The notes under the pieces were generated by a model. It made no database searches, had not been told where the DNA came from, and saw nothing but the letters and a program-made list of their open reading frames with translations. From Nemertoderma westbladi (Eukaryota > Animalia > Xenacoelomorpha), in NCBI GenBank assembly GCA_032718475.1, contig JAUCBJ010009031.1, positions 80,960 through 144,959 on the forward strand: a stretch of 64,000 nucleotides of DNA. Reading direction: 5' to 3'. The first letter of the stretch is position 1, and the number at the start of each line of letters is the position of its first letter. Shown piece by piece: positions 4,907 through 51,415 of the stretch. A program made the position numbers and the translations under genes.

Positions 4907-6001
4907 TGTTCGCGGTATTTCAACTTTTTATAACGCGAGTTGAATATTTTTTGTATTAATTTAAAATGATTATTCCGATATTACTACTGGGTGCGGGACC
5001 ATGGGTTTTGGGCACATTCTATAAACTGGGGGCGATTTATGGGCGAACTTTGGGGCGACTTACAGGGTACGGGTCTAATTTCATGTTTATAAGGGCCAAG
5101 GGGGGATGGAAAATTCAAGCAGTATTCAGGTTAGCCTGATTATTATTAGGCCCTGGCCAACTTCCTGCTGCCTGTAGAGGTGGATTTGGTAACGCGCCAG
5201 GCCTAAAGGACAAGCACTGCCCTTAGCGGTCCCTGGCCAACAGCAGTTATTACGAGCCTGAAAAGGACATCGGAACGCCAGCTGCTTGTGTCAGGGACTT
5301 GCGACGGGAAACGACACGACAGACCCCTAGCCAAGCCGTACTGGTTCTTGATGATCGTTCCCTTCGGGGTTCGTGAGGGGTGGGATGGACACGCGAAAGG
5401 GTCTACCGACTAACAGAGGAAGGGTTTGACGAGGACTGCCCTTAGCGGTCTCTGGTCAACAGCAGTTATTACGAGCCTGAAAAGGACATCGGAACGCCGG
5501 CTGCTTGTACCAGGGATTTGCGACGGGAACCGACGACAGACCCCTTAGCCAAGCCGTACTGGTTCTCGATGATCGTTCCCTTCGGGGTTCGTGAGGGGTG
5601 GGACGGACACGCGATGGGGTCGAAAGACAAAGGACTGGACTCTACCGGCCTACTGACTGTTCGGAGCAGTTTCTCGGCTGCCGAAGCGACTACGAGCCTG
5701 AAATGGACTCGGAAAGCCTAGGTGGTTGGGTTTCTGCGATGAACCGACGGACCCTTAGCCAAGCCGTACTGGTTCTCGATGATCGTTCCCTTCGGGGTTT
5801 GTGAGGGGTGGGACGGACACGCGAACGGGTCCAATGACACGACAGACTCCTAGCCAAGCCGTACTGGTTCTCGATGACCGATCCCTTCGGGGTTCGAGAG
5901 GGGTGGTACGGATACGCGACAGAGTCTACCGACTGGGCCGACCCTTAGCCAAGCCGTGCTGGTTCTCGTTGATCGATCCCTTCGGGGTTCGGGAGGGGTG
6001 G
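4907..6001 (+). repeat. BEL-1 5' LTR (3'-truncated, with an extra internal unit of about 220 bp)
   Basis: Matches 15072 onward (TGTTCGCGGTATTTC...) until about 6001, where it joins Gag sequence directly. Confidence 0.92.
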
Positions 6002-12296: not shown

Positions 12297-14897
12297 ATGG
12301 ACCCAAATCGCCAAATTATCGGCGAATTACGTAACATGATAGATCTACTGGAATATTCGCAACCCGGATCCCCTGACTTTGATACAAATTGGAGCACCCT
12401 GCTAAATGAGAACGTGCGAGTCGTTAAATTCACCGGGCGAGAGGGACCGGATTCCAAGAATCTACGAGCCCTCCGGTTAGCCGATGCTAGTACGAGACTG
12501 AAAAGAACTCGGAACGCAAAGGCAACCGGAGGGGACGATTCGTCGTTTTGGGAAACGTTCCGGCAGAGCGTCTACAGATCCCGATGTTTGATCTACGACA
12601 ACGAGAGAAACGCGACGCCCACCTCGAAAGCGATTACGTTGGCGAGATGTCAAAGTTTCGTCGACGACAAGAGTACGTACCTCGCCCACTGGAGAAACCT
12701 GTCGGAGTGTACGGCGATGCTTCGAGAGGAACGTATATCGACCATCCAAAATCGCGACGACTACCAAGAAAAATACGGGGCGAAAGAATACGGTCGATCC
12801 TTGGTCGTCGTCCTCGGAACCCTGGACGGTTTGGTATTGGTGTGTCGAATATTTCCGACACCCAGATAGGAAGTGCAGGCAGCCGGAGCGATCTGGTTGC
12901 TACCTCCGGAAATCCAAAAGATCCTCTTCGACTTCGACGTCATTAAAATCGGGTCGGATATAAAGGCGGACGTCCGGAACGACTACGCGAACGCTCCTTC
13001 AGGAAGAAACCGACGAGACAACCTCAACGCCCTTAGCCATTGCGTCGACACTCAAACGCTACTACCCTGGTTACGATTCGCCGAGTTCATGCGAGGATTC
13101 CAAGAGGTGAGACCGACGAAATCCGGGATCGGCTACCTCGCTGTGCTAAACGGCGGCATCGACTTCAAACCCCAGAAATTCCGGGACTATAATAAAATAT
13201 ATGGTGGATACCCGGGATTAGAAATAAAGAGCAAGCGAGAGGGTCGATGGAAGGTAGTTGATCGGAAGTGGACGATACACCAAAGGTGGGAGAATCCCGA
13301 TCGACGGAACTACGTCTACGTCGTTATGGAGTGCTACACCGTCGCTAAGTTTATCTGTAAAACTCTCGATAACCTTATTACGGCGGTTCCTCTTTCCTTC
13401 GTCAACTACGACTGGAACGAGGTTATAAACCACGCGTTCAAAACGGTCGAGAACATCACACCGGGAGAGACTAAAACACTCGCTGTTATCGATTCCTGGG
13501 ACGAGAGCGGACCTTACGACATCCCTACGATTACCGAACTTCTCGGTGCGGAGGAGCCTCTGATTTCTTCGGAAGGGGAAGAAATATGGCTAAATGAGGG
13601 TGTTCTACTCTCCACCCCGAAGCGATAACTCGAGCCGGAGGCCGCTTACCAACCGGCCGCCAAACGGGTTGCCTCCACCGAACCAACGACGGAAGCGGGC
13701 GTTTCCTCACCACTCGGCTTCGGTAGCCCTGCGAGGGAGTTGGTTACTACCTTCGCGTTAAACGACTTCGGCGATACGTGCCAAAGGTTATCCCCGTATC
13801 CTTTCCCGGGTGGCGAAGACTGGTCGTCGGAGATTCCGAGTACCAGCAATCAACGGACCCACTCAGCGATATTGGTCGAGAAGGGCCCCAGCGCTGCGCC
13901 AACTCCCGACGATGTCCTTGGAATCCCTCCGTCGAAAACCCCGGCACCTCTTCGCCGACCAGCGGTGGCTACTACACCCTCCGTTCCTCAGGATCCTATG
14001 CGACTAACCCGTTGGTACGCCGAGCAAACCGAATGGATCCACCGCCAGAAACGGTCGTCCAAGTTGAGACCGACGGGACACAAAGAAGGTTATCGTAGCG
14101 AGGACCTACTACGCAAAAGCCCAGCCTTCCGCGTGCTACCGACCACCGCGAATATTCAGAAGAGCGACCGACGACTCGAGTATCACGTCGGTGTCCCGAT
14201 TCCAATATTCCCCGGTCGAGAGATGCAGTTGGAGGTGTGCGGCGACTGTGGTTCGGAGCAGTGCCCACGCGGTAGAAGGAATCGGGTTACCGATTCATGC
14301 CTCCAGCTCCTCGGGATACTCTATTGCCCATACTGCGCGATATCGGGCCACGACGTTTCGGTCTGTCCGATCCTATATAACCTCTGCACCACGTGCGGTT
14401 TCCGTGGACATTCCTCTAGCCCCCGCTGCTATATCAAATGTCCTACCAAAGACGTTACCGCTATGGGATATATGGTCATGTTTGAAACATACGCAAACAG
14501 CCACATAAAGACCAAGGTTCGGAGAAACGCTCGGAATATCGCGCAGGAGATGGCGTGCGGGTACTTCTCCTTCCCGGAACGCCTCCACACATCGGCCACG
14601 CTGCCTTTCCATTACGTGGATTTGTTGCTGAGCGCTGGATTATTCGGCCCATTCGAAGTCATTAGACGCTTATACTCGTATAAAGAGGAGTTCGGTGACG
14701 GAGAGTGGTTCCTCGAGGCTCGCAACTCCGAGTTGGAACGACGAACCAATATGATCCCGATGCCATCGAAAGGAAGAGCCGCCAGGAGACAAGCCGAAGC
14801 GTTGCTCACGATGGATGTTGACGCTCCTCTACCAGCTATAGCGATCGACGAGAGCCGACGGGCGAAGAGGCGAAAGGCGTATCAGAGAAAGAAATAG
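12297..14897 (+). pseudogene. BEL-1 accessory ORF: DEDDy-like 3'-5' exonuclease plus Cys/His zinc-knuckle module (866 codons, two in-frame stops)
   Basis: ORFs 12297-12869, 12873-13628 and 13740-14897 share one frame, broken only by TAG 12867-12869 and TAA 13626-13628. Motifs: LIYDNE, LPPEIQKILFD..VIKIGSDIKAD, CVDTQ, SGIGYLA, YVVME, CPYCAISGHDVSVCP, CTTCGFRGHSSSPRC. Confidence 0.8.
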
Positions 14898-15071: not shown

Positions 15072-16388
15072 TGTTCGCGGTATTTCAACTTTTTATAACG
15101 CGAGTTGAATATTTTTTGTATTAATTTAAAATGATTATTCCGATATTACTACTGGGTGCGGGACCACGGGTTTTGGGCACATTCTATAAACTGGGGGCGA
15201 TTTATGGGCGAACTTTGGGGCGACTTACAGGGTACGGGACTAATTTCATGTTTATAAGGGCCAAGGGGGGATGGATAATTCAAGCAGTAATCAGGTTAGC
15301 CTGATTACTATTAGGCCCTGGCCAACTTCCTGCTGCCTGTAGAGGTGGATTTGGTAACGCGCCTGGCCTAAAGGACAAGGACTGCCCTTAGCGGTCCCTG
15401 GCCAACAGCAGTTATTACGAGCCTGAAAAGGACATCGGAATGCCAGCTGCTTGTGTCAGGGACTTGCGACGGGAAACGACACGACAGACCCCTAGCCAAG
15501 CCGTACTGGTTCTCGATGATCGTTCCCTTCGGGGTTCGTGAGGGGTGGGACGGACATGCGATGGGGTCGAAAGACAAAGGACTAGACTCGACTAGACTCT
15601 ACTGGCCTACCGACTGTTCGGAGCAGTTTCTCGGCTGCCGAAGCGACTACGAGCCTGAAATGGACTCAGAAAGTCTAGGTGGTTGGGTTTCTGCGATGAA
15701 CCGATGGACCCTTAGCCAAGCCGTACTGGTTCTCGATGATCGTTCCCTTCGGGGTTCGTGAGGGGTGGGACGGACACGCGAACGGGTCCACCGACACGAC
15801 AGACTCCTAGCCAAGCCGTACTGGTTCTCGATGACCGATCCCTTCGGGGTTCGAGAGGGGTGGTACGGATACGCAACAGAGTCTACCGACTGGACCGACC
15901 CTTAGCCAAGCCGTGCTGGTTCTCGATGATCGATCCCTTTGGGGTTCGGGAGGGGTGGAACGGACACGCGACAGGGTCGACCGACACCGACACTACGGCA
16001 TCAAGACTAGGACCGAGGGAAAATCTGGGGAACATTAGTTAGGCTAAAATCTGAGCGAACAGTGGGTAATTAAATAATATACTGTAGGGATTTATATTGT
16101 CGTGTATAATTATTGTGAATATTTGGTGTATATTGATTTGGGAAAGCCCAAAATTATTCTCAATCAGGATTGTAACAGGATTGTACATTGTTACAGGATT
16201 GTAACAGGGTTAACTACATTAAAGAATATATCCAACCAATGCAGCTTTTTCTCAACCGCAATCCTGCATCTAAGAAATTCCTCCTTCTCCACAATCAATA
16301 TCCGGTGACTGGCCGGGACTCCGTGGTCTGTAAAGCCCCGCCTCCAGCATCGGCGTTTTTCCCCCCTGGTGTCGGGATAACGGCAACA
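15072..16388 (+). repeat. BEL-1 3' LTR (1317 bp, complete)
   Basis: TGTTCGCG...GGCAACA followed by TSD GCAAC; contains four copies of the CCCTTCGGGG-type hairpin module (the fourth reads CCCTTTGGGG). Confidence 0.95.
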
Positions 16389-33610: not shown

Positions 33611-33834
33611 GTGTGTCTGTAGCTTGGTGTATTTTGGAACTTCACACCAAGATCATCATAGAACTGAGCTATTTCTAGTTTTGATGCATCGAGTGCGTGC
33701 TGAAAACACAGGGTTATGGAATTATGAAGATCTAGGTGCACTATTTTGCTTCAGAGATTATACAGATATGGGACAATGAATCGTGATTCAAAATAAGCGA
33801 TAACTTACTCTACACTATTCCATTTTCGACTTAC

Positions 33835-35749: not shown

Positions 35750-36931
35750 TGTACGCGCTTTTGAAGACCTTTAGCAGTTTAACCTGCCAAAATTTATATG
35801 TCTTTTGGTTTATAAATAGACTTTAACATATGACAAGTATTTAATACCAATAAACACAACATTAGCCGAAGCCAGCCTAGTGCGCGTCCATTCACCCGCT
35901 GGATATACCCGGGAGACTGGATTCGGAGGGCTTAGATTTTATTGCAGTGTAAGCTTACTGTATTATTCGATTGATCGTTAATAAATAATTTCTGACAAAT
36001 ATTATTCACTTTTGGGAAATATTAACAGTTCCTTTAGGACGTGGCGCTCTATCTAGGTAAACAGAGATATGACTTATACTAAACACAACGGTAAGAAGGT
36101 AAGGCTTATGATTCACGTATGAGGCGCATTCTTTAGGAAATGCTTAGTTATCAGCCACAATCATGCACACTACCGGTACCGCACAATACTGCACACTAAT
36201 CTGCCGACCGTCAATGAATTTTATCATACATAAAGAGAACAGCAATGGACTCATGTAGTGCCTATCAAATAGCATTAAATTCACTACAAACCACGATAAC
36301 ATAAGTCGCAATCGCTATATGTAACCTGTCTCTCTAACCTGTAGTGTATCAAGAAAATTGGGAAATTTGGGTTATTTATCGATGTTCTCCAAGTAATAAT
36401 ATTCAACCAACTGATACAAATAATAACAACAGTAAAAAGCATTAAGACGGTAGGTTAAGATTATAACAATGTAAGATTGTACCGCTGGACCGCTGATAAG
36501 ACTGTTAACAGTTATACGCTCTATAATCTAAGCCTACTAATGTTTCTTCTAAAGTCTGAAACGAATTGACTCTAGAGCCGGTGTTCTTGGCCTAGATAGA
36601 AACAACAAAACTATAACTCTAAGACTGAACACGCCTAGTACGATCTGTAGAATATCTCCACATCTAAAGTAAAAATCGCTCTGATTGGCTGTTAAGCTGA
36701 ACAAAGAACCATGTGTCCAACGGCCGTTTCCATGCCAGCAACCAGCTGTTAGATGTCGTAATCTGAATCATCAAGGCTACACTGTGCTAGAGGATTTGAC
36801 GCATTGTGGGTTTTGTATCTTGCCATGTCCTCCAAAGCACACATATAGAAAAACAACTTTTATGTCCGTTAAAACACCCACACGGTACTTTGCGGGCAAG
36901 GGGACTGATTATATCCGCAAAAGCTTTTACA
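35750..36931 (-). repeat. BEL-2 3' LTR
   Basis: Direct repeat of 50234-51415; preceded on the minus strand by the short purine-rich GGGAGCGG. Confidence 0.96.
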
Positions 36932-37008
36932 CCGCTCCCAGAAAATGGGATTCAAGTCTATAAATATACAAAATCACAGTTTCTAATATACGTAAATACT
37001 CTAAACAG

Positions 37009-38880
37009 TTAGTCTTTCTTGCGCGGACGGCGTTTACGCAGTTTTTTAAAGCTGGCCAGAGTCTTTTTCTCTTTGGGGCGAGCCACTTTACAAGGAGGGC
37101 TATAACTCCTGGGTGAAGGGTGCAATATGATTGCATCAGAGGGTGTAGGATTATGGTCGGTGTATCCGCCGGTCGAAGTGCCGGGTTGATTGACATCAAC
37201 GTCGGGGGAGAGGGGTCTAACGGCCTTTAGAGCGCGTTTTAGGACGGCCGCTCTTACGGGTCCTTTACGAGTGGTCTGAACGAGAGCCGTGGGTGGACCA
37301 TAGGCAGTCAGGAACTTCCTGGGTTTAATGGTTCTTTCCAACTCACGTTCGCGGGCTCGGTATTTGTAAGGCCATCGATATACTTCCTGTAACTCGGGGT
37401 GTGAGTTAACAAATAAGTCTCCATAGTCCGGATCCTGACGGATAAAATTGATTAAGTTATAGGAATGAAGGTCGCTAGGATTAACACTCCTGAGAAATTT
37501 GCGTACGAATTTGGTTGAAATACATTCTCCGACGCGCTTCAGTAGTTCGTAACTCGATATGCGTGATTTCTGTTCGACAGAAGCGAATAGATAAGGATGG
37601 AACGCATAAACTCCTTCGTAAGCGCGTCCAGGATAATAGCGATGGCGCAAATCACAATGTAAATCAGCGTTCGCTTCCCAAGCTCTGATGTAACGTAGTG
37701 TGATCATTTCATCTACGCTTTCCAAATCGTGATTAAAAGGGCAATCGAAACTGGCGTGTCCCTTTAGTTGACAATGGTGACATTGAGTCATAAATTGAGG
37801 GCAAACCGCAAAAATATGCAAGTTATTGAGTGTGCAATATGCGCAATAAATTTCCATCGCCGGTTGTTCTTGGAAATAGGAACAGCGGACGTTTGTGTCC
37901 ATGGGCGTAACATGGTCTCTCGATGAGCACAACCGACAACGTTGCCGAGAAACATAGTTGGCATGGTGATAATCGTACGCAGTGAGACACTGTGGACCTT
38001 GATACCATTCTAGGATGTAATCGTTGTCGCTGTTCCGGGGCGCGATAGGCTGAATCTCCTCAGATTCTAGGCATATTGGTTCGTCTTCCCAGTGCATAGC
38101 TGAGGTGGGCGTGTCTGTCTCTTCAAGTGGACCTATTGTCTGAATTTCCACGACAGAATAACCTGTGGGGATTCGAGGTCTTTGTATAACAGAGGAGTGC
38201 AAGTTCGATATACAAATCTCTTTGAAAATGGCAAATCCAGCGCTATCTAACTTCTCTGCAGCTGAGTTTCTTAGGCTGAGCTTGGTCAAAGCGCGGTCTT
38301 TAAATTGGCTATCCACGTTGCGGAACGGGGTTAAAAATTGCTGGAAACATTCGAAGCGGATGAATTTATTATGTTCATCTAGCTTAGCGAGTTTGGTCCC
38401 AAGTATTAATGGATGGGCGCATATAGTACGACTGCACACATTGGCTAGCCAACCGGAAAGTGCGGTGTTTTCAAAGATCGTGTAGATAGCTAAGGAGGGA
38501 CGGAGTGGAACACTCATGAAGCTATACACGGCGCCAGGTGCGGTCAATGGTCCGTCAAAGTATAATCGAGAATAATGGTCTCCGTATACTTGTTGATAGT
38601 TGATGGGATTTCCGACTTTGAAATTCCATCCGTATTCCTGAAAGGCAAGATGTCCGATGGAAGTTCGTTGCACCTTTGTAATGTTGCTGGACGTATTAGC
38701 ATACATGGTGCGGAAGAAACCTCGACCTTCTGCCCAGGGAGCAATCAGCTGCGTATCCACGAAAGGATATGGGATATTTTCCATATTCCGAAAGTCGTTT
38801 TGGAGATCTCCATAAACAGCTGAGCCGATTTTAAGGATTCTTTCGTTGAACAACATCTCGAGTACGGGCTGGGGTAACAT
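37009..38880 (-). CDS. BEL-2 accessory protein, C-terminal part: exonuclease motifs II/III, zinc-knuckle module, basic tail
   Basis: LPQPVLEMLFNERILKIGSAVYGD, FVDTQ, TSIGHLA, YTIFE; CRLC..H..C, CAYCTLNNLHIFAVCP, CHHCQLKGHASFDC; tail KKLRKRRPRKKD. Confidence 0.8.
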   Translation of the reverse strand: MLPQPVLEMLFNERILKIGSAVYGDLQNDFRNMENIPYPFVDTQLIAPWAEGRGFFRTMYANTSSNITKVQRTSIGHLAFQEYGWNFKVGNPINYQQVYGDHYSRLYFDGPLTAPGAVYSFMSVPLRPSLAIYTIFENTALSGWLANVCSRTICAHPLILGTKLAKLDEHNKFIRFECFQQFLTPFRNVDSQFKDRALTKLSLRNSAAEKLDSAGFAIFKEICISNLHSSVIQRPRIPTGYSVVEIQTIGPLEETDTPTSAMHWEDEPICLESEEIQPIAPRNSDNDYILEWYQGPQCLTAYDYHHANYVSRQRCRLCSSRDHVTPMDTNVRCSYFQEQPAMEIYCAYCTLNNLHIFAVCPQFMTQCHHCQLKGHASFDCPFNHDLESVDEMITLRYIRAWEANADLHCDLRHRYYPGRAYEGVYAFHPYLFASVEQKSRISSYELLKRVGECISTKFVRKFLRSVNPSDLHSYNLINFIRQDPDYGDLFVNSHPELQEVYRWPYKYRARERELERTIKPRKFLTAYGPPTALVQTTRKGPVRAAVLKRALKAVRPLSPDVDVNQPGTSTGGYTDHNPTPSDAIILHPSPRSYSPPCKVARPKEKKTLASFKKLRKRRPRKKD

Positions 38881-41261
38881 GATCCATCGATACCCATGGC
38901 CGGTTTGCGTTCGGTGTCAATGACGTAACGCTGCGCGAGTTCGAATTGTCCATGTCGGAGATTCTTTTGCATTTCGGTGAGAGTTTCAAAGGAATAATCA
39001 ATCACGTCGGAACACGCTCGAGTAAACACGTGGGTAGAACCAGCTAATCCGCGTATGTGGATCATGCGCGTAGTTCCTAGTTCTCCGACCGTAACGCTAC
39101 CTTCATTATCGTAGGTGACAACTCCATACATCTCAATGACATTAAGAGTTTCATTCCACTCTTTGGTGGCGTTCTCTAGGGTCATCCCTACTGGATGCCA
39201 CAAGGTGGCGCATTGGTTAGCGTCAGGGAGATCACTATACTTCATGTGCCGAGTGGTATACGTCTCCACATTTCCATATCTTTGTATTTTCTCTTCTTCA
39301 AATAATACATCTAGATTCCAATGGACTAATCGAGTTTTAATAAATCCATCGAGATTATAAGGAGGTTCTATATCCTTCTCGATTCGAGAAATGTTATATG
39401 GTTTTCTGAATGAGTTTACCTTTACTAACTGATCCAGATGTTTCTGCAATTGTTCGAGTTCGACAACGTCTAGAGGATTTATTAGTGGTAGAAACTTTAA
39501 ATTATGCGTCGGGTCTTCTGGTTTTACCATATAATATTGAGTCAGATTAACGTAATAAGGGTGGTCTTTAATCCCATAAAACGAGTTCTGTAAAGGTCTA
39601 GCGCGTATGTTGACATCGTGTACCATACGACGGACAAGATCCGCTCGATTGTCCGGAGGTTCAACGAGTATACCGTCAACACGAGCAGCCTCGATTGGCG
39701 GACGCTGTAACATAGGGGCGTCAGCGATAAGATTTTGCGATCCTGTACTGATATCAACCGGTTGGGGTTGTATCGTCGCGAAGAGTTTGTCTCCGAAATG
39801 TGGAACCATCGAGGGATGACGGACGGTTTTAGAGTAGAGATCTGTCATAAGGATTTGAGCTTCAGGTTGGGCTAAAGCGGCTTCTTCTCTCTCGTCCAAT
39901 TTTGTGTGTTTCTCCTCGAGTAGATTTTCCTCCGCTTGTCTCTGTAAGCGTTCATCTAGAAACTCTTGTAGAGAATACGTGCGTCCAAGCTCGATGTCCT
40001 CCTCGAGGTTTTGGATTTCTCTATCGAACTGTGGCAAGGCTAACTCCTTCACCGATTGGAGTTGTTGTTGTAATTTACGTTTCTCTAAACAATCTTGTGT
40101 TCCCTTTCCGATCTTCTGTCGAATAGCGTCTAAAGCGTTTCTTATAACGCTCTCCTCGACTTCCGTGGTGGGTTGCATCGGGTTTAATCCTGGACGATTG
40201 TAAGGATCAAATGGTGATATTAGATGCCCGCGTCCCAATCCGGCTAAGTAGGATGGGCGAATGTCTAACGAACCCACTACCGGAGCACCACCGATTAATT
40301 GTTCGGGTAACACTAAATCTTTGAACAGGGAATATAGTTCGGGAGGATCAGTGATACTGTTAGGATCAAGAGTTTGAGGTCTCACTAGGGAATGAGGAGG
40401 CCTGACCGAGTATTCCGGAACTCTGATCATAGGTTTATTTAGTGATCGTTTAAGACGAGCGATCGTAGGTGATACGTCGAACAGGTTTCGCTCGAAACTC
40501 CCGTAAGTATAACGCGTAAAGCTGTGTTTAGCGCAACGTCTCCGCGGATGTTTATGTCTTTCAGTTTGTTGGTTGGGTCTAGGGCATTCGTCACAATAAT
40601 ACCAAAGACGTACGTCCTGTAGAGGAAACGCGGGTGATTGTTCTCCAGTTTTGCAATATTCTTCCATTTGTTCAAAACTATCCGGGATAACAGGTAGTGG
40701 ACGATCGGCGGTAAGATACATCATAGTGAAATAGAGCCGTTTGAGTTCTACCATAGGGTCATGATGTATACCTTGAGGATATCGAGTCTCTAGGTTCTGC
40801 TGACTGGCGATGTTGAGATAGGTTTCTCTCAAAAATTCCAGGTAGTCGTTGAAGTCGATGCGTTTATCCGGTTCTTCAACGTTTTCTGTTTCCAGTCTGT
40901 TACGAATAGAATTTTCGTGTTCTATTCTCGGTTTATCGTTACGACTCCGCTGGGTATGATATTTAAATAGAACCATTTCCCTTTCGGTGTCTACATCGTC
41001 CGTATCATGTAAATTGATAGGATGGCCGGTAGTTAAGAAGTCCATATACGTACCATTACGATGCGTATAGCAAGCGGTGAATTTTCGATAGTCCAATTCA
41101 CGCGTAAGTTGCTCTTGGGACATCGGCGGTTCGATATAACGACCATCGTCCTCCGTAATGGTTGGATCGGCTTCACCGCGTATCAAGCTATCCACAAATG
41201 CTTGTAAAGGTAGAGTATATCGCTCCCTGATACCAAGATCATCTTCTATCAACTCCGTCAT
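38745..41261 (-). CDS. BEL-2 accessory protein, N-terminal part (unknown domain, Cys/His motif, coiled coil, ExoI motif); frameshifted into 37009-38880
   Basis: 838-aa ORF; VVTYDNEG at about 39102-39113; overlaps the next ORF in the -1 frame near 38885-38920. Confidence 0.75.
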   Translation of the reverse strand: MTELIEDDLGIRERYTLPLQAFVDSLIRGEADPTITEDDGRYIEPPMSQEQLTRELDYRKFTACYTHRNGTYMDFLTTGHPINLHDTDDVDTEREMVLFKYHTQRSRNDKPRIEHENSIRNRLETENVEEPDKRIDFNDYLEFLRETYLNIASQQNLETRYPQGIHHDPMVELKRLYFTMMYLTADRPLPVIPDSFEQMEEYCKTGEQSPAFPLQDVRLWYYCDECPRPNQQTERHKHPRRRCAKHSFTRYTYGSFERNLFDVSPTIARLKRSLNKPMIRVPEYSVRPPHSLVRPQTLDPNSITDPPELYSLFKDLVLPEQLIGGAPVVGSLDIRPSYLAGLGRGHLISPFDPYNRPGLNPMQPTTEVEESVIRNALDAIRQKIGKGTQDCLEKRKLQQQLQSVKELALPQFDREIQNLEEDIELGRTYSLQEFLDERLQRQAEENLLEEKHTKLDEREEAALAQPEAQILMTDLYSKTVRHPSMVPHFGDKLFATIQPQPVDISTGSQNLIADAPMLQRPPIEAARVDGILVEPPDNRADLVRRMVHDVNIRARPLQNSFYGIKDHPYYVNLTQYYMVKPEDPTHNLKFLPLINPLDVVELEQLQKHLDQLVKVNSFRKPYNISRIEKDIEPPYNLDGFIKTRLVHWNLDVLFEEEKIQRYGNVETYTTRHMKYSDLPDANQCATLWHPVGMTLENATKEWNETLNVIEMYGVVTYDNEGSVTVGELGTTRMIHIRGLAGSTHVFTRACSDVIDYSFETLTEMQKNLRHGQFELAQRYVIDTERKPAMGIDGSCYPSPYSRCCSTKESLKSAQLFMEISKTTFGIWKISHILSWIRS

Positions 41262-42863
41262 ATCTGCTATCTGAGTTTATTAATATTGTAATGAGTTTAT
41301 GTTTAGGCGAGCGGGCGTCGCTGCCTACCTCTCTTTGCCCCCGGACAGTGGGATTCTCAGCGCCGATGTACCGTCGTCGCAGTGTTTACGCCAACATGTA
41401 GCAACAGCACGACAACGATAACCGGCACAAGTCACTCCACTGTCCGTCCCAAAGGCTTGGATCCACTTTAGGTTCTTTCTATAGGAGAGTTGGGCTACTT
41501 TCACAATTGCGACTAGCTACTGTAAACATACTTTAGCAGTAACATTCACCTATAAACGCACAAATTCCACACAACTGTCACCAATTGTACACATACAGGC
41601 CATTTGTCCGTTAGTCAGTGCCTTCCAGAATGTCACGTTATTACTGTGTATCCTTGGATACTAACAGTGTGCTATGTATTCTCTATGCTATGCAATGGGA
41701 CAAGCTTTCTATTGTTCTTTTAACTTGCTTCTAATTCTAGCGTGGGTGTTGCTATGGTGACATTATGGAAAGCTAGCGGTAGAATTAGGGTAATTCTCAT
41801 GCATACAGATCTGGAATGCTATTTAATAGTAATTCTTTAATTGTCAATATCCTCTTTATACATGATTTTATTAATTTTATCGGCTATTGACTATATGTCG
41901 GAGATTCTCGCACTCTAATACACTCAATAGGATGAATCTCCGCTCCCATGATCTATTAATTAATGGAATTTTGGGAATGTTATAAATTGCACAAAATGAC
42001 AATTTATGAAATTCATTTAAGATATGAATTTAAATTTATTCCCGTGAATTTTATTATTTGATGGTAAAATTGACACAATTTTATTCCAGAGCATGTCTGG
42101 GGACCTAGGATCCTTAATTCTATAAAATTGTCTTTTAAGGGTATCGGTAAGTGCTACGATATCTTAATTGACTAGAAATTTTAAAGGATCGGAATTTTAT
42201 AGATTTTAATAAATATTAAATTAATATTTAAAATTGGCACCGATTTATTCCAGAACTTGTCTGGGGACGTTAACCACTGATTCTAGAATTTGTCTTTCAA
42301 GTATATCGGTGGGTGCCGCGATATCTTAATCGACTAAAATTACAGATGGTCAAAAGGTTTAACAGATTTATTTTCGTTTTACGCTACTGTTATAGGGACA
42401 TCACGCTACTATATGTATTATTTAATATAAAGTAGAAGAGCAATATCGCACGAAGCAATGTCAGTGTGAAGAGGCAAGTCGTTTCCAAGGTCTACCCAGA
42501 GCTTGGTTTAGCCGAGACACGAGGATCTGAACTTTGCATTCCTAATACTCTGCCTACCAATAATACTTAAATATAGTAGGAGCTTTATTGTACTTTAATA
42601 AGTACTGACATGTCATCTTACATGTAGTCTCGTATTTATAATATAATACGGACAGTAAGGAAAAAGAAAGAATTATTTCTCGCCGTCATATTAAATATAT
42701 ATTATGTGTAATTACGTAATAAACACTAATATATTGCACTAACCTACTAAATAATCTAAAATAACATTCTACTAAATAAAATTAAATAAAACGATTATAA
42801 TAAAGTAAAAAAATATAATAAAAATAGATAGAATAATATAGTCATGCACCCACTCCAGACGTA

Positions 42864-44243
42864 TCACGTTGGGGAGTCCCTAGATGTTTGAGGAATTAGG
42901 GAGGTGGTCGTGGGAAGAGTGTCTTGCCTTCCATAGTTTCCGGAGAGTTCTCGGTCTCTTTCCAGTAAACATAAACGACCAACTGGGTGGTTAAGCTGTT
43001 GCGTCTCAAAGATTATGCCTGGCTTCTTGAAGTTACGCCGCATGACGACGAGTTCTACCGAGCGTACTAAACCATCATCCGAGATGTGAGTCTCGATGAT
43101 ACGACCTGTCTGCCACCGCTTACGTGGAAGGTCTGAATCTACAATAAGCACCATATCTCCGGCGCTGACGTTTTCTTGCTGCGCAAACCACTTAGTTCGA
43201 AGTTGTAGCGTGGGCAGATAATGTTTCTCGAAATGGTCAGCGAAACGACGGGATAGCAACTGCATAAGTTGCCAAGTTCGACGGCAGTATTCGTCTCCTT
43301 CGGTAATCTCCGATCGTGGGAGCATGGCTACAGGTTTCTTCAGTAGGAAGTGCGCGGGTGTTAGCGCTTCCAGGGAATCGGGACTCGATGAGACTGGCAT
43401 AAGCGGTCTCTCGTTGAGATAGGCAGCTATTTCCTCCATTAACGTCCGCAAAAGTTCGTCGGTGAGATACGCGCGGCATGGCACTATAAAGTGAAATGCG
43501 GTCTTGACACTTCTAATTAATCTCTCCCAACTTCCTCCCCACCAAGGGGCGTCGGCGGCGTTGAAGGTCCAGCTAGACGCTGTTATCCTTAGCTGATCGT
43601 CCACCTGTCTTTGGTTCCAGTCCTTCACGTAAGCCTGGATTTCGTTGTTGGCACCAATGAAGTTCGTTCCCTTATCCGATCTCATGGTATTACTAGTCCC
43701 GAAGCGAGCGATCTGTCGGCGTAAACTTAAGACGAAGCTGTTGGTAGATAGATCGTTCACCATATCGAGATGGATGGCTCTACAAGTCATGCTTACGAAG
43801 ATGACACACCATCTCTTGACTATAGTCCTAGCACGATATACTTCAATAGGGCCAAATAAATCTACACCAGTATTAGTAAAAGGTGGTTCATAGAAGCTTA
43901 CTCGTTCCCTAGGTAATTCTGCCTCTCGCTGTGTTAAAGGCCTACTGAATGCTTTCCTACAGGGTATGCAGTTCCTAAGAACTTGGTTCAGAGCTCTACG
44001 GGGTTTATAAAAATAATAGCGAGTTCGGATTTCGCTAAGAACTCGTTCACTACCAGCATGATAAAGTTTACTGTGAACATCTACAATCATCTTGATTTGT
44101 ACTTCAAGATTTCTAATGAGTATGGGGAATTTAGTGTCAAAGGATAACGGCGCATTGGTGAGTCTTCCTCCAACACGTATTAACCCATCTATCATTGTGC
44201 TAGAGAAGCGATCCCTTAAGCGCATCTGCGGATTTCTCAACAA
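42864..44243 (-). CDS. BEL-2 integrase (same frame as the upstream ORF, separated by one stop)
   Basis: GLIRVGGRL, H..LYHAG...CIPC, GVDLFGP, SDKGTNF, GGSWERLIRSVK, LTPAHFL. Confidence 0.93.
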   Translation of the reverse strand: MLRNPQMRLRDRFSSTMIDGLIRVGGRLTNAPLSFDTKFPILIRNLEVQIKMIVDVHSKLYHAGSERVLSEIRTRYYFYKPRRALNQVLRNCIPCRKAFSRPLTQREAELPRERVSFYEPPFTNTGVDLFGPIEVYRARTIVKRWCVIFVSMTCRAIHLDMVNDLSTNSFVLSLRRQIARFGTSNTMRSDKGTNFIGANNEIQAYVKDWNQRQVDDQLRITASSWTFNAADAPWWGGSWERLIRSVKTAFHFIVPCRAYLTDELLRTLMEEIAAYLNERPLMPVSSSPDSLEALTPAHFLLKKPVAMLPRSEITEGDEYCRRTWQLMQLLSRRFADHFEKHYLPTLQLRTKWFAQQENVSAGDMVLIVDSDLPRKRWQTGRIIETHISDDGLVRSVELVVMRRNFKKPGIIFETQQLNHPVGRLCLLERDRELSGNYGRQDTLPTTTSLIPQTSRDSPT

Positions 44244-44252
44244 CAGGAAATA

Positions 44253-46088
44253 CTAATCGGAATCCTCATAGCATTGCAGGAGTCTCAGTATCTGCTTATT
44301 GGTTTCTTCATGCTCCTGGTAACTGATTTTCTCCTTTAGAAACCGGTCAGATGTCTTATATTTGGGTAAATTTTTAATAACATGAACTTGCGCAGATGTC
44401 AATGGAGCGGTATCACTAATGGTCTTCGTCCTGGAGTAGTGATGATGAAAACATCTCCTTAAATATGTGACGGCTTTACAGAGCCGATTCCAGGAACTGT
44501 AGTGATGCATTGCTCTCTGCAGCAGGGGTGAGATTCCTTGCGAGACGTCTGGTATTCCAGATTTCCAATCTCTATCTCTAATTTCCACAACAGACTTATT
44601 TGTGGCGAGGGATTGTAGATCCGAAGCATCATTTCCGGAAGTATGTAATACAGATAGATCGATCGTCGGTTTAAATAACTTCGATTTACTCGCCCGGGTT
44701 TTAGGTTTGACTTTCTCCGCTCCCTTGGCTTGTCTAATCTCCGCCGTAGTAAGGTGAGGAGGCCATTCATCCTCTTCCTTACTCAGGAAGTCGGGTCCAC
44801 CCAACCAGTCTGGAGTATCTATCAGTTCCTGTTGAGTTGCTCCCCTGGAGGCGATATCGGCTGGATTAATCGTACCAGGGCAATGTCTCCATTGATCTAT
44901 CTTTGTGCGACTAAGAATAATAGCTACCCTGTTAGTAACAAAAACGCTGATCTGACAGTATTCATTGGTTATATATTCCAACACGAGTAAAGCGTCGGTC
45001 CAATAAACAGTTTTCTGCAGTGGATAGTCGATTTGTTCTGTTACGTTCCGGCCGATGGCTGTAGCGTATAAAGCCGCTTTTAACTCCGCTCGAGGAACCT
45101 TTAACTTGTTGTTAATCAATGCCTTAGAGGTAACCAAGGCGACTTTGATTCCATCCGGAGTTTCGACTCGCAGATATGCTACTATACCTATTCCCATGTC
45201 GCTGGCTCCACCCTTTGGTAAAGTAGAGACTACGGCTCCAATAACCATGGAACTCTGATATTCATGAGACTTACCTAACCAGTCCAATTGTCTACAGATC
45301 TCCTGAATCTCATCGGAAAACTCTATAATCCCGCTACTAAGGAAGTTTCGGGGGGCTACTAATTTTGCATACAAATACTTAGCTATGTTATCCTTGTTAC
45401 CATACCTGGTGTTTAATGTATCCCAAACTTGTCTTAATCCATCTGGATGTCCAATGAACTTTAACGCCATTAACTTGGGAGGTCCTTCCAAGCACTTGAT
45501 GAGGAATCTAAGTTTCTCACCGTTAGATAGTACAGAGTTCTGTATACTATCTTTGTAATATTCATTGAAAGGTAACCATTTCATCTCATCTCCATTGAAT
45601 TTGACGATCTCTCGCACTTTGACCGCTTGGAGGGCTTCTGTTCTAGCCATCTGACGCGTAAAGCTTTCTTGGGCCATCGTGTTATTTAATATCGAATCAT
45701 CGGTATATAAATTTCTCGGATTATTATCAGGTCTATAGGGAATATTATTAACAACAGGTTTATAATCACCCTTAATAGGGTTTGCTATAGGAGTTTCTAC
45801 TTCACTAGCAGTATAGATGCGTGTAGGCTCCACACCTTGCGCATGTAATACTTCAGACCTAACAGGTTGACACAATGTTACGGGGGGTATTGGTATACCC
45901 TTTTGTATATTGACTAATTTGTCGCGTTCTAGCACGATGCTTTGCTGCACTTCTTGCAATTCTACCCTACTTTCCCTTACTGTTCCCTTAAGTTGGTGGA
46001 CAGTCTCCTGCATCTGTCCGAGCAGGAGATTCATCCCCCGCCGTCCCTCCTCTACCCACTCGACCGCCGAAGCGGGAGTCGCCAACAT
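44253..46088 (-). pseudogene. BEL-2 Gag core fused in frame to RNase H (zinc knuckles, protease and RT deleted)
   Basis: Gag KFNGDEMKWLPF...KLRFLIKCLEG...VVSTLPK runs straight into GASDMGIGIVAYLR...VPRAELKAA...YWTDA...NPADIASRG; junction at about 45210. Confidence 0.88.
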
Positions 46089-47850
46089 TGTAGCGGGCCG
46101 ACGCGGACGACGGGAGACAAATCTTTGATTTCTCTCTCAGCGTCCAGGACAGGGATTTTCTCATGGACTGTTCTACCGGGTACAGGCAGTGTAGTACTGT
46201 GTAAAGGGAATTTAGAGTTAAGCTCTGGAAGTACAGGGGTCTCTAGCACAGGAGTGGCTTTGGGAACGACAGGCCTAATTATTTCAGGCTCATCGACTAT
46301 CGTAGGGAGTCTTTTGACCTTAATAATTTGGTCTGTGGGTTCTGTACTACCTAAGTCTGTGCTAGCTAGTTGTCTTCTAACAGCTGGGGGCAAATCAGGC
46401 AATTTGTGACGGTGAGATGTTTTTCTACGCCTGCTTAGACGAGATCTATTTCCTCCGCCTTCAGGATCGGTGGTCTCGCCTTCCTCCGATGATGTGTATC
46501 CCTGGCGTTTGGGAGTAGATCGACTCATCATCTGCATTTGACTGCAGTTAATTGTTTATTTATGTTGTCTTGCGTCTCTTGCAGATTTTCCAACTCCAGT
46601 TGGGTAGTCTCCTCAGACGCTCTCCGTTCTGCTTCTGCCACTGCCTTTGCCGCCTTTCTTTCCGCTTCTGCTTCTGCCATTGCCGCTGCCTTTTGGTCCT
46701 CTATCCGTCTTTTCTTTACTTGTTCTTCTTGGACTCTAGCGAGGTGGAGTTTTTCATCAAATTTAGCTTGGTTTGCAGCTAACATTTCCGCATCGATTGA
46801 GTCCAACACAAGCTTGGCTCCTTCACTATTGGGGCGAAGTCCAACCAGTCGTCTCCTCAACTCTTCATCACCAAAGAAACGTTGATAGTCTGACAGATAG
46901 ATGTCGATGGCGTCTCTCGTTCGCGGTCTCTCTGCTGTCACTTCGCTTTCCACTTGAGAAAGGGTGGCATCGGTTGATTCTTCATAGGTTGGTCGCTCAG
47001 CCAGCTGGGATTTCCACTGGGCCGTTTCTTGAACTTTGAGACCTACCCGCTGGAACCAAGTCTTGACAGCAACTTGCAGTGACGTGTCCTGTCTTCTTTT
47101 GGAAGTTTCCTCAAAGGCTGATAGGATTAGCCTAATGCGTAGGGTTCTTTCGCGTACTTGATAAAGCAGCTCTTCCTGCTCTCGAGGTCCTTTGGGTTGT
47201 AATCGCTCTAAGGAGCCGAAGAATCCCTGCACATATCCTGCTGCCGACCTCTTCCAAACAGCTGGATCCATCGTATCTCTAGTCACTCCCATCCTGTGTA
47301 TGTCTTCCCAGGTAGCTTCGGATAAGTCTAACGGGAATCCGGGTCCGGGAAAGTTCCATTGTGACTCGACAATAGACATCAATTCTTCCCTGGCGTATCC
47401 CGCATAACTATCTTGGGTCGCTCGCTTACTTCTCGCCCAATCTACTTGGTGTTCCTCCACCGCAATCAATATCGTAGTTAGTACTGCGGCAGGAAGAGTG
47501 AGAAGGGGATCCGAATAGGCTGTATCCGCCATCTTCACTCCGCGTTCGGGGGTCAGCTCTACAGTATTCGAACTACTGGAGCTATCGGGTTGCTGGGAAC
47601 GAGTTTCTTGGCTAGGATGTTGCTGCTGTTGGACAGCTGCTTCTTGGTTCCGTTTGACCTGGGCCCGAGTGCCGATGATAGACCTACGGTGTTGGATTAG
47701 CCTAGGGTCTGATACTACTACTGGAGGGATGACCTTTCTTTCAGTAGGAGGTGAGCTGAACCCCTTTCTTAATCGCTCCACACTCCTATCTGTGTCACAG
47801 ATGGTTGTATCGATTAGACTGTCTGACAGGTTTTGCTTTGTGTCAGACAT
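46052..47850 (-). pseudogene. BEL-2 Gag N-terminal region (coiled coil), two frameshifts
   Basis: ORFs 46528-47850 and 46052-46537 overlap each other and the Gag core in shifted frames; E/K/A-rich helix. Confidence 0.65.
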
Positions 47851-49230
47851 GTTTAGCTATACAGTTGAATGCTTACTGCTATAGTTACAGTTAAAGCAAG
47901 TCTAGTAATTCAGTATGACCGTTGGCCTAGTAATTAATTACCTATACTGCTACTCAGTGTAGCGGGATATATATATAATATGATATATTAGAATACCGGT
48001 ATGCTTATAGTATATATAAATTTTATTACAGACTAGGTTTGTCACAGAATACCGGTATATAATTTTAGCACAAATATATATAAATATATAATAGGCCTAT
48101 CGTGAATGCCGGTATACAGCCTACACTTATAGTATATATAAGTATAATTCTGGACTAGAATTAATTGCAGAATACCGGTATAATTTCAGCCTAAATTTAT
48201 AGAAATAAAGATAATAGGCCTATCGTAAATACCGGTATATCAATTATTTAAATAATTGAATTTCTGAATTTTAAGGATTACTTGGTTACTTTAACTTACT
48301 TTATTACCGTTATTTAAGCAGTAGTCCAACTGATATTGAGACCTAATTGTTGTATGGCAGGCCTACTATTTATAAATCGTTTGAGTTGATTTATAATATA
48401 TATATACCCGTTTAAAATGGGTTTTGTCAATATTTGAAATAAATGTTATTATTTCTGGGGGAGTCACTACACAGAAGCTGTGCGCTCTCAGTGAAGTGCT
48501 ACTTGTTGGACACTAAAACAAATAATTCTAATTTACCTAAGTTACTTAATACTACAAATTACGTACGATACGGGTGAGATTAATTCTCTAACTAAACACA
48601 ACAAAATATTACGTACGAAATTTTAGGGTAATTTTACAGGGAAACTACAAACCAGTCTAACAAAGGGTTAGAACTTCTGGTTATTACAACAGACAGAATA
48701 CTACGGTATTTGAAAATAATAAGTAGTAGTAAATATATTTCGCTGTCCAGATAGGAAAAATACCACCGTCTGACGACCTATAGCCGTATCGCTATAGGTA
48801 CTACGTTATGTATCACGGAGTGTTCCTACCTGGAAGTTAATTACCGCGGACTACCAGATCCAACGTGCCTATTAACCACTTTACAACACAATACACTGCC
48901 TACACACTAATTACTTTCGGAAAGCACTGTACACCAGACCCTAAATTAGGTACAAGTACTTATTAAAACAGATAACTAGCAGTTAAATATACTTGAACAG
49001 TTAAAAGAACCACGGCATCTGCTGGAGTGACCGGAGCACAAAGTCACCAGTCTTTACCTACGCCAAGCAGCCCGTGTAGTACCGGGGTTAATTTAACTAT
49101 AACGGTATGTGTAACAAGCACAATTACTGTATGAATAAACTTGGGGACATGAATGTTGCGAATAATCGCATAAACTCTGAATAATAAATATTACGCTACC
49201 CGTACAGAATACTCAAACAAAATACAAACC

Positions 49231-49760
49231 AAACGCTGGCAGACTACCATCAAGCCTAAATAAACTACAGTATGTGCAGATTCCAAAATGGTTAGTTAGT
49301 ATGCGTTCTAACACGGTAGTACGACTTATTCTTTAGGAGGGGGTTGACCTTACAACTCAAGATGCCCCAACTTACTAACTGGCACTTTATCGGACAGACT
49401 CTACACACGCCGCAATCTCTCCAGACCCAACAACAGCCAGACAACAATCCAGCCTACAAAATATCTGAGTAATACTATTACGGTACCTGAACAGACCACA
49501 CAAACAAACACAGGCTAAAACGCTGGTAGACTACTATCAAGCCTAAATAAACTACAGTATATGCAGATTCCAAAATGGTTAGTTAGTATGCGTTCTAACA
49601 CGGTAGTACGACTTATTCTTTAGGAGGGGGTTGACCTTACAACTCAAGATGCCCCAACTTACTAACTGGCACTTTATCGGACAGACTCTACACACGCCGC
49701 AATCTCTCCACACCCAACAACAGTCAGACAACAGTCCAGCCCACAATTATCTGAACAATC
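49231..49760. repeat. Tandem duplication (period about 287 bp) in the BEL-2 leader
   Basis: AAACGCTGGYAGACTAC... at 49231 and 49518. Confidence 0.9.
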
Positions 49761-49946
49761 TGAGCAGACTTACACGTCTTCTGCTCAATATTAACTTACA
49801 TGTAAATAAAACCGACAGAAATAAGTAAAATCTCAATAAAAAACCAGGGCGGCCGTTCCCTGATTAAGTACTAAGACCTACCGGTATACAATAATCAAAA
49901 TCGAATAATATTAATGTACTTATACTGGAAGTACCGGTTAGGATGG

Positions 49947-50165: not shown

Positions 50166-50233
50166 TTCAGGTTTACCGGTCGACCGGTACTTTCAACTTT
50201 ATTGCTTACTGCAATAAAGAAAATAACTGTTAT

Positions 50234-51415
50234 TGTACGCGCTTTTGAAGACCTTTAGCAGTTTAACCTGCCAAAATTTATATGTCTTTTGGTTTATAAA
50301 TAGACTTTAACATATGACAAGTATTTAATACCAATAAACACAACATTAGCCGAAGCCAGCCTAGTGCGCGTCCATTCACCCGCTGGATATACCCGGGAGA
50401 CTGGATTCGGAGGGCTTAGATTTTATTGCAGTGTAAGCTTACTGTATTATTCGATTGATCGTTAATAAATAATTTCTGACAAATATTATTCACTTTTGGG
50501 AAATATTAACAGTTCCTTTAGGACGTGGCGCTCTATCTAGGTAAACAGAGATATGACTTATACTAAACACAACGGTAAGAAGGTAAGGCTTATGATTCAC
50601 GTATGAGGCGCATTCTTTAGGAAATGCTTAGTTATCAGCCACAATCATGCACACTACCGGTACCGCACAATACTGCACACTAATCTGCCGACCGTCAATG
50701 AATTTTATCATACATAAAGAGAACAGCAATGGACTCATGTAGTGCCTATCAAATAGCATTAAATTCACTACAAACCACGATAACATAAGTCGCAATCGCT
50801 ATATGTAACCTGTCTCTCTAACCTGTAGTGTATCAAGAAAATTGGGAAATTTGGGTTATTTATCGATGTTCTCCAAGTAATAATATTCAACCAACTGATA
50901 CAAATAATAACAACAGTAAAAAGCATTAAGACGGTAGGTTAAGATTATAACAATGTAAGATTGTACCGCTGGACCGCTGATAAGACTGTTAACAGTTATA
51001 CGCTCTATAATCTAAGCCTACTAATGTTTCTTCTAAAGTCTGAAACGAATTGACTCTAGAGCCGGTGTTCTTGGCCTAGATAGAAACAACAAAACTATAA
51101 CTCTAAGACTGAACACGCCTAGTACGATCTGTAGAATATCTCCACATCTAAAGTAAAAATCGCTCTGATTGGCTGTTAAGCTGAACAAAGAACCATGTGT
51201 CCAACGGCCGTTTCCATGCCAGCAACCAGCTGTTAGATGTCGTAATCTGAATCATCAAGGCTACACTGTGCTAGAGGATTTGACGCATTGCGGGTTTTGT
51301 ATCTTGCCATGTCCTCCAAAGCACACATATAGAAAAACAACTTTTATGTCCGTTAAAACACCCACACGGTACTTTGCGGGCAAGGGGACTGATTATATCC
51401 GCAAAAGCTTTTACA
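50234..51415 (-). repeat. BEL-2 5' LTR
   Basis: 1182 bp; the only difference I noticed from the 3' LTR is 51291 C versus 36807 T. Confidence 0.96.

Follow-up and report, generated by a model that had tools for sequence, protein, structure and literature searches.

An exonuclease-like zinc-knuckle gene in two distant BEL/Pao elements of Nemertoderma westbladi

This locus raises the question of whether two highly diverged BEL/Pao elements of one genome carry the same additional gene, how they came by it, and what its product might do. The sequence analysed, called the window, is a 64,000-nt stretch of the Nemertoderma westbladi assembly GCA_032718475.1 (contig JAUCBJ010009031.1, positions 80,960–144,959, forward strand). 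It contains two elements, BEL-1 and BEL-2, and both bear a homologous open reading frame (hereafter the cargo) in the same sense, in the interval between integrase and the 3′ LTR (Table 1); an initial annotation had placed it there, and position, sense and homology all hold.

Table 1. Positions of the features of BEL-1 and BEL-2 within the window
Feature	Position	Strand	Remarks
BEL-1, whole element	4907-16388	+	11.5 kb
BEL-1 gag-pol	5783..10996	+	knuckle, protease, Peptidase_A17, integrase
BEL-1 cargo	12297..14897	+	866 codons, two in-frame stops
BEL-1 3′ LTR	15072..16388	+	
BEL-2, whole element	35750-51415	-	15.7 kb, PR/RT absent
BEL-2 5′ LTR	50234..51415	-	1182 bp, TG...CA ends
BEL-2 5′ gag region	46052..47856	-	two open frames (46528-47856, 46052-46555); putative gag, from its position
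BEL-2 DUF1759–Peptidase_A17 frame	44253..46136	-	Pfam; DUF1759 gag domain joined in frame to C-terminal part of Pao Peptidase_A17 (RNase H) region
BEL-2 integrase	42864..44252	-	Pfam; H2C2, DUF5641
BEL-2 AT-rich spacer	41262..42863	-	integrase to cargo; 1602 bp, 34.8% GC
BEL-2-specific N-terminal extension	39204..41261	-	~690 aa; Cys/His cluster 40524-40595, Gln/Glu-rich segment
Exonuclease, N-terminal half	38917..39203	-	candidate Exo I D-x-E in VVTYDNE, 39102-39122
Overlap of the two BEL-2 cargo frames	38745..38916	-	holds the single frameshift of this copy's cargo
Exonuclease, C-terminal half	38428..38883	-	Exo II D in GSAVYGD, 38806-38826; Exo III-like Y-x3-E in YTIFE, 38470-38484
Cys/His clusters	37666..37938	-	three, two of CCHC-knuckle type, then conserved W/F-E-x-x-A motif
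Basic C-terminal tail	37009..37047	-	KKLRKRRPRKKD and stop
BEL-2 3′ LTR	35750..36931	-	preceded by purine-rich tract

Two elements and their common gene

LTRs, target duplications and a polypurine tract, as is usual for BEL/Pao, are present, and Pao-type domains score above the Pfam cut-off in both elements (DUF1759, Peptidase_A17 and DUF5641 in BEL-2; Peptidase_A17 and DUF5641 in BEL-1). The two LTRs of BEL-2 differ at a single base in 1182, and the duplication GTCCC flanks the element on both sides within a 33-bp satellite; BEL-1 sits in a 52-bp satellite with the duplication GCAAC. The truncated 5′ LTR of BEL-1 (from 4907) runs straight into gag-pol, the gag start and the primer-binding site being deleted; behind it come, in this order, a protease (a weak match, below cut-off), Peptidase_A17 and integrase, with an RT-like YVDD segment, read by eye, between them, while Pfam finds no RT domain in BEL-1.

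The BEL-2 copy is more severely reduced. Its 5′ gag region has no gag family match in Pfam, the DUF1759–Peptidase_A17 frame closes with a stop ahead of the integrase, and neither gag knuckles nor protease nor RT could be found by Pfam or by tblastn with the BEL-1 pol, the matches of which are confined to residues 1015–1166 and 1309–1723; the loss is an internal deletion. A primer-binding site for a tRNA is expected to follow the 5′ LTR and to start with TGG; the BEL-2 leader starts with ATAACAG, and by that rule no tRNA-type primer site is apparent, which may set it apart from the Belpaoviridae. This copy is a non-autonomous deletion derivative, likely mobilised in trans. Of the gag-pol plus nuclease architecture initially proposed, the cargo stands, but pol is not intact in this copy of BEL-2.

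From its ATG at 41261 to its stop the BEL-2 cargo spans 1417.7 codons, in keeping with the annotated length of about 1417, and the preceding spacer is as long and as AT-rich as described (1.6 kb). The gene is split over two open frames that overlap (38745-41276 and 37009-38916, minus strand), and related contigs in all four read runs differ in length from the window copy within the overlap; in the window both cargos are broken, by this frameshift in BEL-2 and by two stops in BEL-1. Two AG dinucleotides directly upstream of the ATG are candidate splice acceptors, and the stop lies 77 bp from the 3′ LTR. In BEL-1 the order is exonuclease (with an insertion of ~50 aa after Exo I), linker, knuckles and basic tail. 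About 690 of the 1417 residues of the BEL-2 cargo are matched neither by the BEL-1 cargo (866 aa) nor by the outside homologues described below (575 and 648 aa); searches of Pfam, the ESM Atlas and PDB with this extension gave no hit, and a stop-free run of its length would arise by chance with P about 7e-17.

By BLASTP the two cargos match in the Exo II region (28% identity over 111 aa, E 4e-10) and in the zinc module (26% over 76 aa, E 1e-6); the N-terminal frame of BEL-2 and the first piece of the BEL-1 cargo give no significant match (E 2.8). Aligned in full, with X at the breaks, they score 118 against 43.9 ± 5.0 over 300 shuffles (maximum 66), by which chance similarity is ruled out and on which the claim of homology survives the test of pairwise significance set for it beforehand. 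At the DNA level the best blastn match is one of 20 nt (E 0.03, not significant), which bears out the asserted conservation at the protein level only. The motif pairs quoted initially were located in both cargos (VVTYDNE and CLIYDNE searched without the leading W); the spacing given for that W, W-x9 in BEL-2 and W-x10 in BEL-1, is wrong, being W-x11 in both in a gapless alignment. As to the common zinc module and basic tail, the former rests on the significant match above, and a tail is present in both.

The encoded protein

Among 1.84 billion proteins two relatives of the cargo were recovered, P0002 and P0003 (575 and 648 aa; E 4e-5 and 7e-4). In each, a predicted EXD2/Egalitarian-like DEDDy 3′–5′ exonuclease is followed by a linker and then by tandem CCHC knuckles; one of them also ends in a basic tail. 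The contigs that carry them reach 9.4 and 11.5 kb. A profile made from these two proteins only picks the three cargo frames, and these alone, among 1083 pieces of the window (E 2e-12 to 3e-18; next best 3.4; best of the reversed control 0.51). The top match in the same protein set, P0001, was dropped as a composition artefact, being an acidic repeat protein of a trypanosomatid; locus scans of JGI metagenomes and viral contigs found no cargo relatives, and word-index searches returned only the queries themselves.

No single test calls an exonuclease at a curated threshold, and Pfam finds none among the window pieces; several weak tests agree, however, that the cargo encodes a DEDDy 3′–5′ exonuclease fold nearest to EXD2 and Egalitarian. 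The N-terminal half in BEL-2 is matched by a PHROG exonuclease (E 0.089) and the C-terminal half, within its own frame, by RNase D (E 0.007); the top three of a PDB profile search are Egalitarian, twice, and EXD2 (E 0.015–0.27). In the ESM Atlas, residues 45–260 of P0003 group, in 26 of 30 hits, with PF01612 clusters (0.93, with 185 features in common). With a low-confidence model (mean pLDDT 40) EXD2 heads both fold searches, although neither reaches a firm threshold (E 1.8e-3; Z 5.3, rmsd 3.3, 76 aligned); a single-sequence model of P0003 (mean pLDDT 36) was of no use. A further match, of 94% probability, was discarded as circular, its alignment having included the query piece.

The EXD2-like catalytic positions hold D, E, D, Y and D/E in all four proteins (BEL-1, BEL-2, P0002 and P0003). 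The Exo I D-x-E, present in all, aligns with that of Egalitarian; taken by itself it is not significant in BEL-2, where an outside profile finds its best placement on this segment, yet at -2.1 bits, with at least 10 of 200 shuffles scoring higher. The Exo II D is invariant in all four, and the matches to Egalitarian and to EXD2 both align it. In Exo III the Y is invariant and the final acidic residue is D in P0003 and E in BEL-1, BEL-2 and P0002; because E replaces D in three of the four, nuclease activity may be altered. The knuckle profile matches HIV nucleocapsid (E 1.5e-4). An env-like ORF3 is ruled out, with no membrane segment and no env family match in Pfam: the 19-residue hydropathy maxima of the BEL-2 cargo pieces are 1.2 and 1.1, and the BEL-1 peak of 2.1 is a predicted core strand of the exonuclease.

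Selection and descent

The cargo gene of the BEL-2 family appears to be under purifying selection. Among the 40 best-supported of 167 sites, taken from the BEL-2 exonuclease region only and with neighbouring changes treated as independent, 24 of 36 are synonymous against 0.32 expected (p 1.6e-5); the share is 21 of 26 at sites polymorphic in the family versus 3 of 10 at differences largely private to the window copy, and therefore the family gene looks selected and the window copy decaying. The initial claim of a cargo under selection accordingly appears to apply to the family, but not to the copy at hand. The frame 38958-39309 has 16 synonymous changes of 23 among the variants listed; in wider variant lists the excess is absent (cargo 5/12, gag/pol 7/16).

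Two independent captures from the host, which the initial annotation had named as grounds for refuting its reading, are unlikely judging from the sequences, because one profile of outside proteins finds both cargos, whereas no host exonuclease of solved structure scores better than E 0.015. Whether the gene descended with one BEL/Pao sub-lineage is another matter. As had been claimed, the LTRs are unrelated (self-blastn of the window gives no LTR match between the elements) and pol is distant; the integrases are only 34% identical, and a sub-lineage is therefore unproven. That value falls roughly within the between-superfamily range of 26.5–39% reported for BEL/Pao, as measured on other domains (PMC3118150). 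A mobile pool of exonuclease ORFs, exchanged among unrelated retroelements and acquired on separate occasions by the lineages of BEL-1 and BEL-2, fits equally well and is quite possible in our estimate, which covers history alone; such a pool is compatible with any mechanism. It would agree with the low integrase identity, with the different N-termini and spacers of the two cargos and with the precedent of rotifers, in which such ORFs were gained independently and shared with Athena elements (PMC5408684). Position, sense and domain order, though, are identical in two elements of one genome, and cargo identity, 26–28% where the two align best, is comparable with that of pol (34–36%), which speaks against separate gains.

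Possible roles and known relatives

We consider it somewhat probable that the third gene encodes a knuckle-held DEDDy exonuclease, selected in the BEL-2 family, which most likely would destroy RNAs that silence the element. The protein would be translated from a separate, probably spliced mRNA and act in trans for the whole family; its basic tail might serve nuclear import or RNA binding, and its zinc knuckles would hold a metal-dependent DEDDy 3′–5′ exonuclease on RNA, where silencing RNAs would be trimmed or destroyed. The least certain step, proposed tentatively, concerns the substrate, which would be antisense or small silencing RNA and not the element's own intermediates. Neighbours in the fold searches also include EXD1 and the small-RNA factor Nibbler. 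EXD1, too, is a small-RNA factor (PMC5408684).

Rather unlikely, in comparison, is a protein packaged with the genomic RNA via nucleocapsid-like knuckles, as the HIV profile match would allow, that edits reverse transcription by trimming the 3′ ends of intermediates; its targets would be primer, non-templated additions and mismatches. EXD2, the nearest structure, cleaves DNA and RNA (PMC6648332), 3′-end processing has been proposed for rotifer ORFs (PMC5408684), and both elements are long (15.7 kb even without PR/RT, and 11.5 kb, against 4.2–10 kb in the family; PMC8742986), but the cargo itself makes up most of the extra length, it is a separate ORF with an NLS-like tail outside the polyprotein, and most BEL elements are described as gag-pol with or without env and lack such a gene. 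Improbable in turn is a non-catalytic fold serving as RNA-binding adaptor for export or localisation of unspliced RNA: Egalitarian, the top PDB profile match, functions without its catalytic residues (PMC13186709), the Cer1 protein CERV is an accessory protein required for genomic RNA export (PMC10309623), and basic tail, knuckles and the D-to-E change in Exo III would suit that role, yet all five catalytic positions (acidic and Y) are kept in four proteins of about 25–30% identity and P0003 has the canonical Y-x3-D. A neutral passenger, decaying after a single capture from the host or as a nested element, is very improbable; both window copies are broken, partial cargo deletions occur in other copies, as seen among the 24 loose ends listed of 3075, and rotifer ORF3s show no departure from neutrality (PMC5408684), but the synonymous excess among BEL-2 family variants, the motifs conserved despite absent DNA similarity and the lack of any host exonuclease at E <= 0.001 among the 1.84 billion proteins all tell against it. 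The broadest reading is doubtful: oversized BEL/Pao elements would form an ancient clade under selection and encode a catalytically active EXD-type exonuclease fused to nucleocapsid-like knuckles, either as a suppressor of small-RNA silencing or as an editor of reverse transcription, a counterpart of nidovirus ExoN in a reverse-transcribing element. A nuclease with an anti-silencing or editing role, encoded by the element itself, would give animal LTR elements a function new to them.

In the papers searched no report of an exonuclease in BEL/Pao was found; older work on Cer elements of C. elegans reportedly mentions an exonuclease-like domain, against which stands the statement of PMC5408684, a paper citing Malik 2000, that retrotransposons had so far yielded no DEDDy exonucleases. 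An earlier description of the architecture in this clade, which the initial annotation had named as a refutation, did not turn up in these papers, but DEDDy ORF3s are known from gypsy-type elements, namely Juno and Vesta of bdelloid rotifers, and from Athena/Terminon elements (PMC5408684). Compared by description only, the cargo is like these ORF3s a separate ORF 3′ of pol, of DEDDy type, with one D-to-E change and no transmembrane segment; it differs in its BEL/Pao carriers, its fold nearest EXD2/Egalitarian, its tandem CCHC knuckles and basic tail, the site of the change (last acidic position, versus DEED in rotifers) and the synonymous excess in the BEL-2 family. With Belpaoviridae the elements have in common DUF1759 (BEL-2), Peptidase_A17, DUF5641, the Pol order as far as it is readable in BEL-1, LTRs of 1.2–1.3 kb, a purine tract and a 5-bp target duplication (PMC8742986; PMC3118150); unlike those, they exceed the family size range and their third gene is nuclease-knuckle and not env-like (PMC8742986), and in the accessible portions of both sources the word "exonuclease" is absent. 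Host EXD2, Egalitarian ExoHD, EXD1, Nibbler/mut-7 and WRN-exo probably share the fold and the catalytic motif order, although identity in structural alignments is as low as about 18%, and the cargo adds tandem CCHC knuckles; Pfam detects no LOTUS, HRDC or helicase domain in it. Dada DNA transposons (Laccaria, Ectocarpus) likewise bear a DEDDy exonuclease, with proposed 3′-end processing, which sits inside the DDE transposase (PMC3706591), whereas the cargo is a separate retroelement ORF. Like the cargo product, CERV of the Ty3/gypsy element Cer1 is an accessory protein of an LTR element in which a Cys-rich module and a candidate NLS occur together, but it has a G-protein-like fold, no nuclease, and experimentally demonstrated export (PMC10309623).

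Whether retrotransposon-borne DEDDy exonucleases do anything is left open in the rotifer paper (PMC5408684). With its occurrence in another LTR group, spanning integrases of such low identity, and with the synonymous excess in a family rich in variants, what was a curiosity becomes a candidate functional accessory gene; P0002 and P0003 are intact, so that nuclease activity is open to assay.

Two elements and their third open reading frame

The DNA of the window is animal-type and rich in repeats, with satellites and several retroelements. BEL-1 and BEL-2 are both assigned to BEL/Pao by Pfam, and each carries a third open reading frame (the cargo) between integrase and the 3′ LTR. In BEL-2 this consists of two overlapping open frames, 1417 codons in all, which lie downstream of integrase and a 1602-bp spacer and end 77 bp from the 3′ LTR, in agreement with the initial annotation (spacer of about 1.6 kb, joined length of about 1417 codons); in BEL-1 it is an 866-codon frame with two stops, located behind a 1300-bp spacer and 174 bp from the LTR. 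The two cargo proteins are homologous (E 4e-10 and 1e-6; score 118 against a maximum of 66 in 300 shuffles) without any real similarity between their DNAs, and the protein-level conservation that the same annotation had proposed is thereby borne out. The first ~690 residues of the BEL-2 cargo, a long open frame, have no match to anything searched; a Cys/His cluster in this N-terminal extension (C-x2-C...H-x-H-x4-C-x2-H) may be a further zinc site.

The BEL-2 LTRs, 1182 bp each, differ at one base. GTCCC duplications flank BEL-2 and GCAAC flanks BEL-1, each within a satellite; the arrays differ between the elements and the 5-bp duplication is clean for each. The 5′ LTR of BEL-1 is truncated and joined to gag, which it meets directly from inside a 95-bp tandem repeat. 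In a tblastn comparison, the BEL-1 polyprotein matched BEL-2 only at residues 1015–1166 (36%) and in integrase (34%). The BEL-2 copy is internally deleted: DUF1759 is joined in frame to the last part of the Peptidase_A17 region, protease and reverse transcriptase (RT) are lost, the 5′ coding region carries two frameshifts, and a stop lies ahead of integrase. Since a near-identical LTR pair encloses several broken frames, BEL-2 seems to be a defective, non-autonomous derivative recently moved in trans; the 4.3-kb cargo region is retained in it. A lone LTR with 73% identity to bases 28–1182 of the BEL-2 LTR indicates a related family.

Coordinates of retroelements and associated features in the window
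Feature	Position	Strand
BEL-1	4907 to 16388	plus
Tandem repeat (95 bp) within BEL-1 LTR	5745-6002 and 15707-15992	
Satellite around BEL-1 (52-bp unit)	1371-4906 and 16389-18911	
BEL-2	51415 to 35750	minus
Satellite around BEL-2 (33-bp unit)	34251-35749 and 51425-57493	
BEL-2 leader after 5′ LTR	50190-50233	minus
BEL-2 region with frameshifts, stop and deletion	44253-47856	
Cys/His cluster in BEL-2 cargo	40524-40595	minus
Cargo parts skipped by contigs	37171-39907 and 38088-40892	
Lone LTR	20188-21326	plus
Non-LTR RT fragments	3-1337 and 21306-22106	plus
Further copies of these fragments	near 25914-26918 and 32673-33612	
RT-like frames	60804-63789	plus

Relatives and nature of the encoded protein

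When 1.84 billion representative proteins were scanned in full with HMMER, three were returned, none of them a host exonuclease; one was discarded as a low-complexity artefact. The others, P0002 (648 aa) and P0003 (575 aa, from a cluster of five), both come from ENA assemblies and have in common with the cargos the exonuclease-like region, the knuckles and a motif following them; P0002 has a basic tail as well. A profile built from these two alone picks exactly the three cargo frames from 1083 six-frame pieces, and the best solved host exonuclease reaches only E 0.015 against the profile; on these grounds a single origin of the exonuclease-knuckle fusion appears most likely.

The Cys/His module gives a match to the knuckles of retroviral nucleocapsid, and the BEL-2 cargo has no membrane segment. 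For the exonuclease-like region the tests all point towards the DEDDy type, none being decisive alone. The N-terminal domain of P0003 is grouped with PF01612 in the Atlas, the best PDB matches of the profile are Egalitarian and EXD2, and the two halves of the BEL-2 exonuclease-like region have weak matches, one to RNase D and one to an exonuclease family from phages. Two fold searches with a poor model each put EXD2 first, with Egalitarian, EXD1, Rrp6, Nibbler and RNase D at lower ranks, mixed with unrelated entries. The catalytic residues of EXD2 are D108, E110, D171, Y242 and D246; D-x-E, D and Y-x3-D/E occur in this order in all four proteins, the last acidic position being E in three of them. 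The candidate Exo I of BEL-2 (the D-x-E motif) is the best placement of an outside profile, yet does not score above shuffles.

Signs of constraint and possible role

Six public runs from four studies contain the window stretch or part of it, and the run that represents it best may be the source sample. Contigs from four of them, used for variants and coverage, cover cargo as well as gag/pol bins and show variants at thousands of places, together with some deletions of part of the cargo; the parts skipped in several runs are taken as deletion derivatives inside the BEL-2 family. At 38300–39400, the 40 best-supported of 167 variant sites were used; excluding four in the frame overlap left 36, not independent of each other. 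Synonymous changes account for 24 of these, against an expected share of 0.32 (p 1.6e-5), and 23 fall at third codon positions. The selection initially claimed thus finds support in this segment; the sparser whole-element lists show no synonymous excess (cargo 5/12, gag/pol 7/16). Of the sites polymorphic among copies, 21 of 26 are synonymous, against 3 of 10 where at least 80% of the depth of one run (X1) differs from the window copy; a constrained family with a drifting window copy would be expected to give this pattern. The frameshift of this copy is not in related contigs of any of the four runs; the difference is seen in only part of the depth in X1 and a second run, X3.

We propose that the cargo acts in trans as an accessory, RNA-directed 3′–5′ exonuclease. 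It would be translated from an mRNA of its own, which is probably spliced; candidate acceptors lie before the BEL-2 cargo ATG, and according to PMC5408684 ORF3s of rotifer elements are typically spliced units. Knuckles and basic tail would hold RNA and carry the protein into the nucleus. The target, the weakest step, would most likely be an antisense or small RNA silencing the family, given that small-RNA factors are among the fold neighbours. Editing of 3′-ends of replication intermediates inside particles is a rather unlikely alternative role. Less probable still is that the protein, like Egalitarian or CERV, serves as an adaptor for export or localisation and has no catalytic function.

DEDDy domains are found in rotifer Juno and Vesta ORF3s, where they were gained at least two times and are shared with Athena elements (PMC5408684); they also occur in Dada DNA transposons (PMC3706591). 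An exonuclease is not mentioned in the ICTV BEL/Pao profile (PMC8742986) or the 2011 BEL/Pao survey (PMC3118150), and a literature search whose coverage stopped short of key older papers and Repbase found no BEL/Pao case. The cargo differs from known retroelement exonuclease ORFs in its carrier group, its domain fusion and its sign of selection. The feature itself is genuine, and in the family it probably has a function; it may define a BEL/Pao sub-lineage, a reading slightly favored over a mobile pool.

Priming and neighboring retroelements

The BEL-2 leader has no TGG-type primer site. Its bases 16–26 are the exact 11-nt complement of LTR bases 984–994, adjoining AATAAA, within a 15-bp pairing that includes a 2-nt bulge (−17.5 kcal/mol); a different LTR window pairs better (−20.9), and a self-priming signal is therefore not established. 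Elsewhere, RT-like frames that carry a YIG-containing motif at the C-terminus and are broken by a 21/72-bp tandem repeat look Penelope-like, with no supporting Pfam match for this label; among the non-LTR RT fragments, the one at the window's start matches RVT_1 in Pfam.
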